A DNA stretch of 64,000 bases. Source: Escherichia coli. Its GTDB lineage: Bacteria; Pseudomonadota; Gammaproteobacteria; Enterobacterales; Enterobacteriaceae. Position 1 is the stretch's first letter; every line of letters begins with the position of its first letter. The notes beneath the pieces are model-generated. The model was not told the origin of the DNA, did not search any database, and was given only the letters and a program-made list of their open reading frames with translations. Shown piece after piece: positions 2,262 to 55,792 of this stretch. The position numbers were made by a program, and so were the translations under genes. Where the stretch lies: assembly GCF_050320075.1 (NCBI RefSeq), contig NZ_CP190018.1; one strand, written 5' to 3'.

Positions 2262-5200
2262 ATGACATATCAGGCAATTTTCACTGGCTGGGATGATCTG
2301 ACGATTGAAGACCTTCTGGTCGCTTACCGGAAAGCAAAAGCCGATAGCTTCTTTGAGAATACATTTCCTGTTGCTATCAAATTTGCCGAGTATGAGCAGG
2401 AATTACTTGAAAACCTGCAAAAACTCTTAGATCTTTTGCAGAGCGAAGATGGATTCAGTAGCAATAAGAAGTTGATTGGCAAATTTCGATTGTTACCGAA
2501 AAAATTAACCACAAAGAAAAAACATGAATCCCAAAATGGACACGTCCACTTTTCTAATCCTAAACGAGCAGCCGACCATTTATTTAATAATTTTGATCTG
2601 ATACCAGAGTTTCGTATTATTGGTGACTTCCCGGTTGATAGTCACATTATCTCTGCACTATGGATTAACATGGTCGGGCATAAATTTGATGCCAGCTTAG
2701 ATAACTGTTGCTATGGCGCGCGGCTAAAGCGTATTCGTAATGATGAATTATTTAGCAATGAGCAGGATAATCCATTCCATATCAGTGCCGTGGGTTCTTT
2801 TAGCCCCTACTTCCAGCCCTACCAAAAATGGCGTGGTGATGGCTTAAAAGCTATACGTGACGAGTTGGAAAAAGATCGTGACATTATCGCCGCCTCACTG
2901 GATTTAAAAAGTTACTATCATTTTATTGATCCACTGGCTATAACCTCTGATGATCTCTATAACACACTAAACATAAAACTGACTGAGGATGAAAAAGCGT
3001 TTACTGCACAGTTAGCAGTATTCTTAAAGCACTGGTCTGACGGCGCAGCGGCATTTGGAAAGAAAATAGCGTACAAAACACCTGTTATTAATGGTGGTCT
3101 GGTCATTGGATTAACAGCCAGTCGGATCATTTCAAATATATTGCTACACCATTGGGATAAATTAGTCATTGAAAAACTATCACCAATTCACTACGGTCGT
3201 TATGTCGATGATATGTTCCTTGTAATACGCGATACAGGGACAATTACTAATAATCACGAATTTATGTTATTGCTGCAAGATAGGCTTGGCAATGATTGCG
3301 TTTATTTGAAAAACGAGCAAAAACAAATATGGCAAATACAGCAGGGCGAGCATTTCCAGGGTAAGACCACCATCCAGTTACAATCCGATAAGCAAAAACT
3401 TTTCGTGCTTCAAGGGAGGGCTGGAATAGACCTGCTCGACAGTATCGAAAAGGAGATCTACGAGCTTTCTAGTGAACACCGCTTGATGCCTTCACCGGAT
3501 CAACTGGAACACTCCACCGCAGCTAAAGTCCTTTCCGCTGCCGGTAGTGTAGGTGAAAATGCCGATACTCTGCGCCGTGCGGATGGATTAACCATTCGTC
3601 GTTTGGGCTGGTCACTGCAATTACGCTACGTTGAAACACTGGCACGAGATCTGCCTCCAAGTGAATGGAAAGAACAGCGGGAAGAGTTTTATCAGTTTGC
3701 CTACAACCATATTCTTAGGGCTGATAATCTATTTGCACATTTTAGTTATCTGCCAAGGCTGCTTGGCTTTGCTATCAGTATGAATGAATGGCAGCACGCG
3801 GAAAAAATTGTACTTAAAGCTTACGAATCCATCAACCTGTTGGCATCGGTGATTACTTCAGGTAAGGAAGTGAATATAAATGGTTGCAAAACTCGAGCAG
3901 TAAATGATCTTTGGCGCTGTATAAAAGGCACATTAAGCTGGCTATTTGTTGATGCAGCGACACGATATTACAGTCCTGACAGATTATTTCTTGATAAACG
4001 TTCAAAGAAAGAAGAGTGCCTTGCGGATACATTTTTTAATCATATTTCACAAAGTCTGACGAATCTAAAGGATTTACTGGATCTTCGCTTTGATTCAGCA
4101 GATTTTTATTTAAAAGCGCCATTGGTAGCTCGAGCTGATTTAGCAAAGGAACCTTATAAACAGATCGTAAAGAGTCAGTCGGCAGAAAAACTTGTTAATC
4201 AGCGTGATAGTAAAAAAGAAGTTAAAATACTGAAATTAATGAGCGACTCATCGCTTATTGATATTGACGTTATTAAGCTATTTTTGAAATCAACCAAGAA
4301 TACCCGACTGGAAAAAGTGGCTAAAGGAAATCGTAAGAACGAAAGTTACCTACCTTACATTTTCCCTACACGTCCTTTAACACCCGCTGAAATATCAGAA
4401 CTGGCCCCCGAATGTGTTGGATTACCCTCCACATCCGACAAAAAACCAGATGAGAGACCGTCCACCATTTGGGCAAAATATACTCAAGCATTACGCGGAG
4501 TATGGATCAAACCGACGTTGCTAGCATCGGAGCAGGACTCAGATGAAGCGACAAAAAAAGCTCGGCCTAAGAAATTCATTCATATTGGCACAGACAGGAA
4601 ACATAAAGTTGTCGTTGCGCTAACCAGCATTAAAACAGAGGAGGACGACTGGGCTAAAATGGCCTGCAATAAATCTAACTTGTCCCGTTCAAGGTACCAG
4701 CGGATTTCTGAACTGGTTAATGCAACATTGAAACTATCTCCTAAACCTGATTATGTTTTATTCCCTGAGCTTTCAATCCCGTTACGCTGGGTTAACAGTA
4801 TTGCTGATCGTTTGAGTTCGGCGGGTATCAGTCTAATTGCGGGAACAGAATACCGCCACTTAGACGATAATCAACTGAAGAGTGAGGCCGTACTTGTCCT
4901 TTCAGATAACAGACTCGGCTATCCAGCGAGTGTCAAAATATGGCAACCCAAGCTGGAACCCGCCGTAGGTGAAGATGAGGCATTATTTTCAATTTATGGT
5001 AAGTCTTGGGATTCGACACTTAATGTTAAACAACGTAAGCCGGTATATATTCATCACGGCGTCAATTTTGGCGTTATGATTTGCTCTGAACTCCAGAATA
5101 GTAAAGCGAGGATCCGTTTTCAGGGCGCACTCGATGCATTAATGGTATTGAGCTGGAATAAAGATCTAGATACGTTTGCATCGTTGATTGAATCAGCAGC

Positions 5201-5471
5201 GCTGGATATTCATGCCTATACTATTTTAGTGAATAACCGAAAATACGGCGATAGTCGCGTACGTTCCCCGGCAAAAGAACCCTTTATGCGTGATATTGCT
5301 CGTGTGAAGGGCGGTGATAATGACTTTGTGGTCGCTGCAACGCTGGATATCGACTCGTTAAGGGCATTTCAGAGCAGGGCAAAACGCTGGCCTAAAGGCG
5401 GCGATAAATTCAAACCGTTACCTGAAGGATTCCAGTTGGCAAAGAACCGCAAAAAGCTACCGCCAAAATAA
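2262..5471 (+). CDS. Reverse transcriptase-nitrilase fusion protein (defence-associated RT, DRT type 1 / UG1-like)
   Basis: 1069-aa ORF; RT motifs A 'SLDLKSYYHF' (aa ~211-220), B 'NGGLVIGLTASRIISNILL' (aa ~277-295), C 'YVDD' (aa 314-317, nt 3201-3212); C-terminal carbon-nitrogen hydrolase signature 'FPELSIP' (E836) and 'GVMICSE' (C941); divergent from AbiE pair. Confidence 0.7.
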   Translation: MTYQAIFTGWDDLTIEDLLVAYRKAKADSFFENTFPVAIKFAEYEQELLENLQKLLDLLQSEDGFSSNKKLIGKFRLLPKKLTTKKKHESQNGHVHFSNPKRAADHLFNNFDLIPEFRIIGDFPVDSHIISALWINMVGHKFDASLDNCCYGARLKRIRNDELFSNEQDNPFHISAVGSFSPYFQPYQKWRGDGLKAIRDELEKDRDIIAASLDLKSYYHFIDPLAITSDDLYNTLNIKLTEDEKAFTAQLAVFLKHWSDGAAAFGKKIAYKTPVINGGLVIGLTASRIISNILLHHWDKLVIEKLSPIHYGRYVDDMFLVIRDTGTITNNHEFMLLLQDRLGNDCVYLKNEQKQIWQIQQGEHFQGKTTIQLQSDKQKLFVLQGRAGIDLLDSIEKEIYELSSEHRLMPSPDQLEHSTAAKVLSAAGSVGENADTLRRADGLTIRRLGWSLQLRYVETLARDLPPSEWKEQREEFYQFAYNHILRADNLFAHFSYLPRLLGFAISMNEWQHAEKIVLKAYESINLLASVITSGKEVNINGCKTRAVNDLWRCIKGTLSWLFVDAATRYYSPDRLFLDKRSKKEECLADTFFNHISQSLTNLKDLLDLRFDSADFYLKAPLVARADLAKEPYKQIVKSQSAEKLVNQRDSKKEVKILKLMSDSSLIDIDVIKLFLKSTKNTRLEKVAKGNRKNESYLPYIFPTRPLTPAEISELAPECVGLPSTSDKKPDERPSTIWAKYTQALRGVWIKPTLLASEQDSDEATKKARPKKFIHIGTDRKHKVVVALTSIKTEEDDWAKMACNKSNLSRSRYQRISELVNATLKLSPKPDYVLFPELSIPLRWVNSIADRLSSAGISLIAGTEYRHLDDNQLKSEAVLVLSDNRLGYPASVKIWQPKLEPAVGEDEALFSIYGKSWDSTLNVKQRKPVYIHHGVNFGVMICSELQNSKARIRFQGALDALMVLSWNKDLDTFASLIESAALDIHAYTILVNNRKYGDSRVRSPAKEPFMRDIARVKGGDNDFVVAATLDIDSLRAFQSRAKRWPKGGDKFKPLPEGFQLAKNRKKLPPK

Positions 5472-52108: not shown

Positions 52109-52731
52109 GCACGGTAGCGAACGATCTCACAGAAGATATTCTCAATGAAATTATTGCTGGTGCAAATACCTCGCTTGAGCAACTTCTTGCGTTAGCACTG
52201 AGAGCCGAACGTCGAGACAGAAATCGTTTTTATGAGCGATTACCAGGGAAGCGACCAGATAGATCGGATGAAGAAGGTTGCGATATAGACTACATGGAGC
52301 CTTCAGAGATTTATCAACTTGGTAAAGATGACGGCTGGAACGCTTATCACGATGCTGTGATGAAGTTGGATGAAAAAGTTAAACCTCTTTCTCGACCGGT
52401 AGATCACGGTTTCCGCGATAACTGCGAATGCTCTAGTTGCCAGACCACGACCCGTATTTGTTCCGAATTGACAGATAAGTCCAGCCTAATCTACGAAGTT
52501 AATGTAGGCGGTAATACATGGGTCGAATGCACAAGAGCTGCATACGTAAGAGCAAAAGACAAGGGTGAATTAACCAGAGTTGTTACCAATCACCCAAATA
52601 ATGAGCTTAAAGATCACCAGATTCGAGAACTGGTGAACGAGTTGAGAGATATTGCGGTTCAGTACCACGGAACGCAGCAATTGCGGGAGAAGATTGCCAG
52701 AGCAGTGAACAACTCAGTCCGTAAAAAATAA
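52105..52731 (+). CDS. Hypothetical early protein (208 aa) with Cys cluster
   Basis: 'CECSSCQ...C...C' cluster; last gene before hairpin. Confidence 0.45.
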   Translation: MSTVANDLTEDILNEIIAGANTSLEQLLALALRAERRDRNRFYERLPGKRPDRSDEEGCDIDYMEPSEIYQLGKDDGWNAYHDAVMKLDEKVKPLSRPVDHGFRDNCECSSCQTTTRICSELTDKSSLIYEVNVGGNTWVECTRAAYVRAKDKGELTRVVTNHPNNELKDHQIRELVNELRDIAVQYHGTQQLREKIARAVNNSVRKK

Positions 52732-52748
52732 GCAATAGTACGATAAAG

Positions 52749-52773
52749 AGGCCCCATGCTCTTGATGGGGCCT
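52749..52773. terminator. Hairpin (candidate bidirectional terminator)
   Basis: Stem aggcccca/tggggcct with 9-nt loop after 208-aa gene. Confidence 0.4.
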
Positions 52774-53170
52774 GTAGCAACTAGCGTTATGGACGCTGGT
52801 TTACGTACTCAATGATCGCTTTGATAATCGCGAACATCGGCGGCACGATTTTGAACAGTAAGTTAACCATAACAGGCCTCACTTAGTTTTATCGCGCCTA
52901 GCTGCAAATACCTTTGGGCTTGCCTTTGCAGTTGCAATATCTGTAGTCGCCAGATACTTACGGCACGATTTCGAGTTAAGGTAAGGTTTTAGAGTCACCA
53001 AAAACCTGGACTTAAATCTTCTTTGAGAACAACGATGTTTAGTAAATGGTCATTATTACCTGGTATGACCACTCAACGTTTCTTGATGAATCCAGTACAT
53101 TCGGTTAATCTTAATTCAGTCGCCAGATACTTATGGCTCAGGAACAGAGCCGCAAACTCTGTTTCCTTTT

Positions 53171-53201
53171 AAAAAGCCCAGCCTAGTCAACTGGGCTTTT
53201 T
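53171..53201. terminator. Bidirectional rho-independent terminator in intergenic region
   Basis: 'aaaaagcccag-cctagtcaa-ctgggcttttt' hairpin with A-run and T-run. Confidence 0.6.
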
Positions 53202-53496
53202 AATGTCTATTTTTAACCCAATGAACCTTCAATACCGTAACATCAGTGTCTTGCGAATTAAGATAGTGTGTATAGGTTATGCATGCAAGTACATAACTCT
53301 GTGGATAACTCAGGAAGGAAAAAGTAGCTCCCGCGCAATTTAGGCCAGACAAGGCTTTCGCAAAAGTCAACAGAGAGAAAAAATTTGTTAAAAATAACGT
53401 TTGTTGGAATTGTATATATTTATGCCTTTCAATAGTTAGCATCTTATTAACATCTTTTTTAAGAGATAGAGTTCAAAAATATATAGCTTCAACATA

Positions 53497-53516
53497 TACT
53501 GTATGTGTATACAGTA
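53497..53516 (+). promoter_or_regulatory. LexA (SOS) box
   Basis: 'tactgtatgtgtatacagta' = CTGT-N8-ACAG palindrome 17 bp upstream of humD-like start. Confidence 0.75.
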
Positions 53517-53532
53517 TTAAGAGGCGAGTATT

Positions 53533-53922
53533 ATGGGCTTCCCTTCTCCTGCGGCGGATTATGCTGAGAGCCGTATTTCTCTTGATCAGCAGATAATTAG
53601 ACATCCTTCAGCGACCTACTTCATGAGGGCAGCTGATAGTCATCATCGTGAGGGAATATTACAGGGTGCATTGCTGGTGGTCGATTCCTCACTTACCCCG
53701 GTTGATGGTTCTCTGCTTGTATGCGCTCTGGATGGGGAATATCGCGTAAAAAGATACCGGAAGTATCCACGTCAGCATCTGGAGGATTTAAGAACCGGTA
53801 AGAAGGAAGCATTGCCAAAGGATGACGATGGATGCACGGGCAGCAATGCCGTGTTTGGTGTGATCACTCACATTATCAACGACGCAAGAAGTGGCGAGTT
53901 TGATGATTGTCCCGTGATGTAG
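53533..53922 (+). CDS. humD: UmuD'-like protein (HumD-type; begins at the UmuD cleavage site)
   Basis: 'MGFPSPAADYAESRISLDQQIIRHPSATYF' aligns with UmuD from Gly25; conserved Ser/Lys positions; LexA box upstream. Confidence 0.65.
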   Translation: MGFPSPAADYAESRISLDQQIIRHPSATYFMRAADSHHREGILQGALLVVDSSLTPVDGSLLVCALDGEYRVKRYRKYPRQHLEDLRTGKKEALPKDDDGCTGSNAVFGVITHIINDARSGEFDDCPVM

Positions 53923-54227
53923 GAGAACTGATTAGGCGGTGCAATGCACCGCCTTTTTATCACACTGCGCGGAATGCGATTTCGCCAGGTATTACTTCAC
54001 CTTGCCAATACATTTGGACAGCAGACTTTCGGCGATGCGTTGCACTTGTTGAGCAGATTCCAGAAATCAGAGATTCATTCGACAAGGTTGCAAAGCGCGT
54101 TCCGGCATTCAAAGGAATCCTCAACGAATGGGATTCCCTCGTTGATCTGTTGAAGTCTGAAATGAAGATACACGGAAACAAAGCACCAGAGACTTACAGA
54201 AGAATTAGCGAGTTACGCAAGGACTAA
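53907..54227 (+). pseudogene. Possible umuC-like (Y-family polymerase) N-terminal remnant
   Basis: Overlaps humD stop as umuC does; weak matches 'CNAPPFY' and 'DFRRCVALV' to UmuC N-terminus; only 106 codons. Confidence 0.3.
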
Positions 54228-54317
54228 CCACAGCCTCATACTCGATGAGGCCTGTTCATTGCTCAATGATATCCAGACCTACCGCAATAATACCAATCCA
54301 ATAAATGGAGATTCCAG

Positions 54318-54665
54318 GTGGAAGAAGAAATCTTCACTCGTGAAGAGGCAGCGTCGTATCTGAAGGTAGACAAAGGCACTATCACGCAGTGGATACGAAG
54401 TGGACGACTTCAGGCCGCAAAGATAAATCCAGATAAACCTAAAAGCCCATATCGCATTTGCAAGTCAGACTGCATTGCGGCGCTTAAGTCTGTGAGACAC
54501 AATAGCGCGGTGAATGCGGTTGATGTGCAGGAGGTTAAAGCATGTCAATCAAACTACGCGGTGGCACGTGGCACTGCGATTTCGTCGCGCCAGATGGATC
54601 AAGAGTTAGACGCTCTCTTGAAACATCGGACAAAAGGCAAGCGCAAGAACTTCACGATCGTCTGA
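54318..54665 (+). CDS. xis: Excisionase (Xis)
   Basis: HTH 'FTREEAASYLKVDKGTITQWIRSGRL' typical of excisionases; upstream of and overlapping int; true 3' end uncertain. Confidence 0.55.
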   Translation: MEEEIFTREEAASYLKVDKGTITQWIRSGRLQAAKINPDKPKSPYRICKSDCIAALKSVRHNSAVNAVDVQEVKACQSNYAVARGTAISSRQMDQELDALLKHRTKGKRKNFTIV

Positions 54666-55702
54666 AAGCAGAAGCGTGGAGAGTAAAAAATCTCGGGGAA
54701 TCACCGAAAAAGCTATTCAAGGAAGCCTGCATACGGTGGCTGCGTGAGAAATCGGATAAGAAGTCCATTGATGATGACAAGAGCATTATATCGTTCTGGA
54801 TGTTGCACTTCAGAGAAGCCATTCTCTCTGACATAACAACAGAAAAAATAATGGAGGCGGTAGATGGGATGGAAAACCGCCGCCATCGCCTGAACTGGGA
54901 GATGAGCCGGGACAGGTGTTTGCGACTTGGCAATCCGGTGCCGGAGTATAAACCAAAGCTTGCAAGCAAAGGAACGAAGACGAGGCATCTGGCAATACTT
55001 CGCGCCATTCTCAATATGGCTGTTGAATGGGGATGGCTTGACAGGGCACCCAAAATATCAACACCACGCGTTAAGAATGGACGCATCAGATGGCTTACAG
55101 AGGAGGAATCGAAGCGCCTGTTTGCAGAAATTGCTCCTCACTTCTTCCCTGTGGTCATGTTTGCAATCACGACAGGCCTTCGCCGTTCCAACGTTACAGA
55201 CCTTGAGTGGTCACAGGTCGATCTGGATAAGAAAATGGCATGGATACACCCTGATGAAACAAAAGCTGGCAATGCGATCGGAGTTCCTCTTAACGAAACC
55301 GCATGCCAGATATTAAGAAAACAGCAGGGGCTCCATAAGAGATGGGTATTTGTCCACACCAAACCTGCCTACCGAAGCGACGGAACAAAAACAGCAGCGG
55401 TAAGGAAGATGAGAACCGACAGCAACAAGGCATGGAAGGGAGCGTTAAAGCGGGCAGGCATTAGTAACTTCCGCTTCCATGATCTGAGGCATACCTGGGC
55501 AAGCTGGCTGGTTCAGTCCGGTGTCTCTCTTCTTGCACTTAAAGAGATGGGAGGATGGGAAACTCTCGAAATGGTTCAAAGATACGCCCACCTTTCAGCC
55601 GGGCATCTCACCGAGCACGCAAGCAAAATCGATGCGATTATAAGTCGCAATGGCACAAATACGGCACAAGAGGAGAACGTGGTGTATTTAAATATGGGGT
55701 AA
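54542..55702 (+). CDS. int: Lambdoid tyrosine integrase
   Basis: 386 aa; catalytic 'HDLRHT' and 'RYAHL' motifs; stop 14 bp from att core. Confidence 0.85.
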   Translation: MSIKLRGGTWHCDFVAPDGSRVRRSLETSDKRQAQELHDRLKAEAWRVKNLGESPKKLFKEACIRWLREKSDKKSIDDDKSIISFWMLHFREAILSDITTEKIMEAVDGMENRRHRLNWEMSRDRCLRLGNPVPEYKPKLASKGTKTRHLAILRAILNMAVEWGWLDRAPKISTPRVKNGRIRWLTEEESKRLFAEIAPHFFPVVMFAITTGLRRSNVTDLEWSQVDLDKKMAWIHPDETKAGNAIGVPLNETACQILRKQQGLHKRWVFVHTKPAYRSDGTKTAAVRKMRTDSNKAWKGALKRAGISNFRFHDLRHTWASWLVQSGVSLLALKEMGGWETLEMVQRYAHLSAGHLTEHASKIDAIISRNGTNTAQEENVVYLNMG

Positions 55703-55715
55703 CTACTTGATTTAA

Positions 55716-55762
55716 ATGGTGCCGATAATAGGAGTCGAACCTACGACCTTCGCATTACGAAT
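55716..55762. repeat. attL core: 47-bp identical to 16849-16895 (within tRNA-Thr 3' half)
   Basis: Exact 47-bp direct repeat. Confidence 0.85.
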
Positions 55763-55792
55763 GCGCTGCTCTACCAACTGAGCTATATCGGC
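55717..55792 (-). tRNA. thrW: tRNA-Thr
   Basis: Reverse complement reads 'GCCGATATAGCTCAGTTGGTAGAGCAGCGCATTCGTAATGCGAAGGTCGTAGGTTCGACTCCTATTATCGGCACCA' with CGT anticodon context. Confidence 0.85.

Follow-up and report, generated by a model that had tools for sequence, protein, structure and literature searches.

The window analysed here, 64,000 nucleotides from Escherichia coli, matches E. coli chromosomes exactly, for example that of strain SB0258h1 (NZ_CP071954.1), and carries a 38.9-kb prophage located beside proA/proB and flanked by a 45-bp thrW repeat (Table 1). In the PGAP annotation of the identical record, the structural genes include those for the P22 major capsid protein, gp4, gp10, the tail needle, the ejection proteins and a head-binding tailspike, and the early region is lambdoid, with a LexA-family repressor, N, erf, abc2, ea genes, xis and int. 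The prophage is P22-like and is integrated at thrW. The gene of interest, humD, is found at the distal end of the early-left arm, just 5' of xis-int. The first-pass annotation of this DNA had proposed a prophage-borne UmuD'-type gene behind a LexA box, and the thrW-bracketed P22-like prophage agrees with that proposal. The excisionase-type HTH ORF (115 codons from GTG) and the integrase ORF that close the prophage overlap by 124 nt in different frames, and the same arrangement is seen in mEp043. Immediately to the left of attL, positions 10455-16835 are occupied by an older, decayed thrW island, in which an AbiEi/AbiEii pair (10455-12144) and a gene for an RNA-directed DNA polymerase of 1069 aa (12460-15669) are accompanied by an ash-family gene and an integrase remnant (16632-16835). 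This region looks like a defence island.

Table 1. Position of the features at and around the humD locus in the window
Feature	Position	Strand	Basis or remark
attL	16850-16894		exact repeat of the 45-bp thrW 3' part (55717-55761)
Phage-plasmid-like block, 1628 bp	52396..54023	+	99.4% identity to ~110-kb IncFIB phage-plasmids (Cyrano)
Hairpin (terminator) in the spacer	52749-52773
Hydrophobic ORF, 31 codons	52882->52787	-	ends just before the hairpin 52749-52773
Direct repeats	52945/53118 (20 nt), 52841/52961 (14 nt)
Terminated AgrB-like element	53123-53204	+	Rfam AgrB 27.6 bits, below GA 40
80-aa ORF divergent from humD, probably non-coding	53442->53200	-	start 55 bp from the LexA box
Sigma-70 promoter-like site, TTCAAA-17 nt-TATACT	53472..53500	+	9/12 consensus; matches of that grade not enriched in the region
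LexA (SOS) box TACTGTATGTGTATACAGTA	53497-53516	.	2 mismatches to TACTG(TA)5CAGTA
Ribosome-binding site AAGAGG	53519..53524	+	8 nt 5' of the ATG, read from the sequence
humD, 129-aa UmuD'-type protein	53533..53922	+	NF051876, PF00717, 92% identity to P1 HumD
Intrinsic terminator, 9-bp stem (7 GC pairs) then TTTTTA	53934..53959	+
apbC/minD-like 3' remnant, about the last 20 codons and stop	53960..54023	-	1 mismatch to Cyrano DNA
Recombination junction, microhomology CAGCA (5 bp)	54019..54023	.	three-way alignments, blastn segment ends
5'-truncated pseudogene, lambdoid ORF114 family	54021..54227	+	phrog_1229, PGAP pseudogene call
Excisionase-type HTH gene, intact	54318..54665	+	Pfam HTH_17, TIGR01764 excise domain
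Tyrosine integrase, thrW-specific type (SfX / mEp043-like), intact	54542..55702	+	PF00589 E 1e-35; mEp043 annotation
tRNA-Thr (CGT) thrW	55717..55792	-	45-bp 3' part 55717-55761 = attR

The humD reading frame offers no earlier in-frame start between the preceding stop and the ATG at 53533. Its product matched the NCBIfam HumD equivalog NF051876 with 219.8 bits (cutoff 120), residues 1-129 falling on profile positions 1-129 of 129, and Pfam PF00717 (Peptidase_S24) with 37.9 bits against a gathering score of 23.3. The protein is 92% identical to P1 HumD over 129 aa and 100% identical to CYRAN_98 of Cyrano. The exact sequence is already present in RefSeq as WP_000506720.1, named “HumD family translesion DNA polymerase,” and is also encoded on the IncFIB plasmid AR_0104. 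A blastp comparison with K-12 UmuD aligned residues 25-139 at 42% identity (E 5e-31), opening at Gly25, the first residue of UmuD', right after the Cys24-Gly25 site. The alignments and the lack of an in-frame start further upstream both indicate that HumD has neither the N-terminal arm nor the Cys-Gly cleavage site. The positions of the Ser-Lys dyad are kept, Ser36 and Lys73 of HumD corresponding in the alignment to Ser60 and Lys97 of UmuD; across the family alignment the Lys97 equivalent is invariant and the Ser60 equivalent is Ser or Thr. The tail SGEFDDCPVM (window residues 120-129) is nearly invariant among HumD proteins across genera and is missing from UmuD. The PDB chains 1UMU, 1I4V, and 8GMT matched the window protein at E ~1e-22. 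An AF2 model, whose core has pLDDT values of 83-89, retrieved the UmuD' structures 1UMU/1AY9/8GMT/1I4V as the top Foldseek matches in the PDB, followed by LexA C-terminal domains.

As judged from these alignments, the window gene is a true HumD orthologue and not a mere analogue. The first-pass annotation had spoken of a UmuD' analogue, which was right yet too cautious, given the 92% identity to the P1 protein and a score above the NF051876 cutoff. Its further suggestion that the ORF encodes the pre-cut form of UmuD', like P1 HumD, holds, as the alignment with UmuD runs from Gly25. The comparison with the UmuD and HumD families, which it had proposed as a check, gave that same UmuD alignment and the full-length NF051876 match. 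The S24/UmuD fold that it had expected from structure prediction was recovered, the AF2 model matching UmuD' structures first. The gene is an ordinary, already catalogued member of its family and adds very little that is new. The HumD-specific tail SGEFDDCPVM might confer an activity that UmuD' does not have.

LexA boxes were scored as mismatch counts against the 20-bp consensus TACTG(TA)5CAGTA. The box upstream of humD is the only site within 3 mismatches of this consensus in the 64 kb, where 0 were expected (100 shuffles), and the near-consensus SOS box first described ahead of the 129-aa ORF, with 2 mismatches, is therefore a real and unique match in the window. Its distance to humD had been given as 17 bp; the box is indeed upstream, but we count 16 nt to the ATG at 53533. 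The site forms a CTGT-N8-ACAG palindrome near the 20-bp consensus and is placed over the only promoter-like site found 5' of humD, whose -10 hexamer TATACT (53495-53500) shares bases with it. In the phage-plasmid Cyrano, box and promoter-like site are placed in the same way with respect to each other. P1, Cyrano, SJC33 and MLI108K3 each have a box at the corresponding place 5' of humD, and another is found 5' of K-12 umuD; the box upstream of humD and that of umuDC are equally near the 20-bp consensus, with 2 mismatches each. Directly 3' of the humD stop lies the terminator hairpin, whose predicted RNA fold has -18.6 kcal/mol (z = -4.2; an equally good fold in 0 of 200 shuffles). As the predicted promoter/operator, the gene and the terminator are all present, the humD unit is a self-contained cassette.

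The 800 bp that precede humD (52732-53532) form an AT-rich (36-45% GC), unannotated spacer that accompanies the gene in the prophage and in phage-plasmids. Given the direct repeats at 52841/52961 and 52945/53118, a plus-strand RNA would be complementary to the 31-codon minus-strand ORF. No Rfam family reached its gathering score in 52600-54400, the best being AgrB with 27.6 bits against 40. A blastn-short search of the spacer against the K-12 dinQ-agrAB locus returned 8-mers only, and the 31-codon ORF peptide has no sequence likeness to DinQ or TisB. It seems improbable that the spacer holds a small-RNA/small-peptide module, such as a type I toxin-antitoxin system like the SOS-linked dinQ-agrAB or tisB-istR, although the hydrophobic ORF with its hairpin, the AgrB-like element and the repeats are features that would suit one. 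The 80-aa ORF that diverges from humD was also considered as a divergent LexA-controlled gene comparable to P1 lxr, and rejected. It matches phrog_28987 end to end, maybe the same ORF called in related phages; it has no Pfam match and PGAP makes no call. Its differences from the relic of this region in P1 are mostly non-synonymous, so that, on this comparison, the ORF is probably non-coding.

Our analysis placed humD within a block of probable phage-plasmid origin (52396-54023) that contains the 3' end of a 208-aa hypothetical gene, the spacer, humD, the terminator and an apbC remnant. A non-mobilizable IncFIB plasmid of 111 kb, which also has apbC and metG, matches the block at 98.8% identity. 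The minus-strand translation of the remnant, which ends with QMYWQGEVIPGEIAFRAV and a stop, is the C-terminus of Cyrano CYRAN_99; in the phage-plasmids, apbC is complete and lies tail-to-tail with humD. In the blastn alignments, homology on the phage-plasmid side stops at 54023 and on the lambdoid side begins at 54019, the CAGCA between these limits being common to both parents. Because the 1.6-kb block is 99.4% identical to phage-plasmids, we infer that the cassette entered the prophage by illegitimate recombination at the microhomology. The prophage is the recipient, since it holds a 64-bp apbC stump and a truncated ORF114, each of which is a complete gene in the respective parent. In the simplest route, the left end of the capture would have been formed by homologous exchange in shared ea-region genes and the right end by illegitimate recombination at the 5-bp CAGCA. 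ORF55 and ~46 codons at the start of the lambdoid ORF114 would have been lost in this event, and 64 bp of plasmid apbC left in the prophage.

The identical junction was found in a different lambdoid prophage, that of strain SJC33, whose excisionase is of the torI type and in which a theta (hot) gene lies 5' of humD. The shared junction suggests that the cassette was captured once and was then spread by recombination. Of 5426 complete E. coli genomes, only 4 carry the junction, and at least 80% of the cassette DNA was found in 130 plasmid records of PLSDB. The sister thrW prophage MLI108K3 (5064-5309) carries the same spacer, the LexA box TACTGTATGTATATACAGCA and a humD that is missing its 3' end; other genes follow, and then intact ORF55 and ORF114. 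The truncation suggests therefore that the cassette is decaying or being replaced in some lineages. The documented transfer from phage-plasmid to prophage is only a modest addition to the known biology of humD.

Like P1 HumD, the window protein has 129 residues and starts with M-G-F-P-S-P at the position of UmuD Gly25, and it ends in the same tail; the LexA box stands at the same upstream distance, and in neither case is a umuC linked to the gene. Whereas P1 is a plasmid prophage in which humD has lxr and phd-doc as its neighbours, the prophage of the window is integrated and P22-like, and its humD is flanked by ea-region genes and xis-int; the DNA upstream of humD differs between the two, the box excepted. 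P1 has a mere relic of the window spacer. This relic (MH422554 1308-1542; ~80% identity to window 53284-53534) is located roughly 1.45 kb 5' of P1 humD and has suffered deletion of the left half of the LexA box and of the first humD codons. The order in P1, where upf93.6-lxr separates the relic from humD, therefore seems to have arisen from a window-like one. A perfect DnaA-box 9-mer (TGTGGATAA) is present at ~53305, inside the stretch conserved with the P1 relic.

The ~100-125 kb IncFIB non-mobilizable E. coli phage-plasmids (Cyrano OV696614, CMS-2020a and NZ_CP020118) encode a 100% identical protein and share the 1628-bp stretch with spacer, operator, gene and terminator at 99.4% identity. 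In these, however, a complete apbC and metG come next, whereas in the window the 64-bp apbC end is fused to a lambdoid gene. Compared with E. coli UmuD' (1UMU, 1AY9 and 1I4V), HumD has the same S24 fold, 42-44% identity over the full length of UmuD', and the Ser/Lys pair; it differs by a 4-residue insertion, by the 10-residue conserved C-terminal tail and by the replacement of the GDSM motif by ADSH, with one residue fewer. Unlike UmuD, it would be made directly, without the 24-residue arm and without the need for RecA*-mediated cleavage, and unlike umuD, its gene has no co-transcribed umuC. The UmuD'-like genes of N15 (gp26), phiKO2, HK140, HK639, BTP1 and Huey, which span lambdoid, P22-like and linear-plasmid prophages, also encode the short form and match over the full length (61-71% identity), but they are more distant and occupy other genome positions, for example beside attP in HK140.

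Short-form UmuD' homologues are also present in P1, P7, D6, RCS47 and SJ46, and a large protein search gave 561 relatives across Enterobacteriaceae, many of them already named HumD. Among the 5426 complete E. coli genomes, 764 contain humD-like DNA, mostly plasmid-borne. In chromosomes of Citrobacter and Salmonella, humD is located at prophage ends, with a dinI-family gene transcribed divergently from it. An 80-aa gene stops 3 bp 5' of humD in Citrobacter, and in E. coli SJC33 the homologue of the pol III theta subunit (hot) lies ~100 bp 5' of it; the two may be the same gene. The association of humD with dinI or theta neighbours looks like a recurring small cluster of SOS-related cargo.

Overlapping the end of humD is a TTG ORF of 106 codons (53907..54227). 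The first-pass annotation had noticed this ORF, which does exist, and had taken it for a degraded umuC with faint similarity to the UmuC N-terminus, cut short by xis/int, in which case the prophage would once have had a full umuD'C-type operon. The two genes of umuDC, mucAB and rumAB overlap or abut, which would fit such an operon. The one N-terminal match to UmuC, and the only identity speaking for such a likeness, is the 4-residue FRRC (ORF residues 41-44, UmuC residues 62-65). It sits, however, inside a stretch of lambdoid DNA: the last 68 codons of the ORF are 95-97% identical to ORF114 of phage 434, HK022 p30 and mEp043 gp29, and the ORF matches phrog_1229 over positions 47-113 of 116 (E 7e-28). 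The intact ORF114-type gene encodes a 114-aa lambdoid protein and is always found directly 5' of xis; the window copy occupies the same place, but it is missing its first ~46 codons and the preceding ORF55, and PGAP labels it a pseudogene with a missing N-terminus. The first 38 codons contain no gene and read through the tail of humD, its terminator and the antisense 3' end of apbC. A Pfam scan of the 106-aa ORF gave no IMS/Y-family match even at E<=1, and an NCBIfam scan gave no match. Searches with K-12 UmuC by blastp and tblastn returned only noise against 53800-54400 and against the whole window, so no UmuC similarity was found anywhere in the 64 kb. The best blastp match of the ORF to K-12 UmuC is at chance level (E 0.48) and falls at UmuC residues 371-400. 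The ORF belongs instead to another family, phrog_1229. Both xis and int are intact, and the 5' end of the ORF was lost on arrival of the humD cassette and not through these genes. Every HumD locus examined is without an adjacent umuC, the gene standing alone in the window and in the P1, Cyrano, SJC33, Citrobacter and Salmonella loci. With no Pfam, NCBIfam or UmuC signal, the umuC remnant was ruled out as a candidate, and we give practically no credence to a former umuD'C-type operon. By sequence, the content of the ORF is a truncated lambdoid gene of the ORF114 family, not umuC.

A polymerase partner for HumD would have to be sought in the host, and umuC is present in 5422 of the 5426 complete E. 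coli genomes. By its title, McLenigan 1999 (cited in PMC8460599) presents P1 HumD as functionally homologous to UmuD' and as facilitating SOS mutagenesis, and P1 humD has been called LexA-regulated (PMC9603915). Because the window protein is 92% identical to P1 HumD and the biology of pol V is established, we infer a function along these lines. Very probably, the humD cassette comes from an IncFIB phage-plasmid and HumD serves as an SOS-induced, cleavage-independent partner of host UmuC. In the lysogen, LexA would hold humD off. DNA damage would then lead through RecA* to LexA self-cleavage and to the production of HumD, and a HumD dimer together with host UmuC would form a pol V-like translesion polymerase. 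As this route would skip the slow RecA*-mediated cleavage of UmuD to UmuD', earlier or higher SOS mutagenesis and lesion bypass would be expected. After prophage induction, PL read-through into humD may also be possible.

Two other explanations for the gene can be weighed against a role as UmuC partner. HumD might mainly be a modulator and not a polymerase subunit, for example by forming heterodimers with host UmuD or by competing for RecA*, ClpXP/Lon or the beta clamp; the phage would then benefit from a changed UmuD2C replication checkpoint or from altered SOS timing. UmuD/UmuD' heterodimers form and are turned over by ClpXP, both of which are well established. The dimer-forming S24 core is kept in HumD, the conserved tail is family-specific, and in prophages of Citrobacter and Salmonella the gene forms a divergent pair with dinI, whose product modulates RecA*. 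The one experimental paper on the family, however, concerns SOS mutagenesis by a UmuD' homologue, as its title states (McLenigan 1999), and we consider it unlikely that modulation is the main role of HumD. The two roles are not mutually exclusive and can coexist.

A still less likely explanation, to which we would assign very little weight, is that the cassette is inert cargo from the phage-plasmid, silent or non-functional in the prophage. The illegitimate recombination that accompanied its arrival damaged a neighbouring gene, the related thrW prophage MLI108K3 carries a 3'-truncated humD, and humD is dispensable in P1, a CRISPRi screen having found it non-essential (PMC10695390). Against this, the ORF, ribosome-binding site, operator, promoter-like site and terminator are all intact in the window; the protein is the same, at 100%, as that of Cyrano and of AR_0104, and at least 80% of the cassette DNA is carried by the 130 PLSDB records; Lys73 is invariant, and the tail hardly varies between genera.

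The locus offers a clean and datable example of gene transfer from an IncFIB phage-plasmid to integrated P22-like/lambdoid prophages, with a junction that can be identified. If a LexA-controlled, ready-made UmuD' acts in the lysogen, the delay to error-prone synthesis would be shorter and more stress-induced mutation would follow, and raised stress-induced mutation would bear on the evolution of antibiotic resistance.
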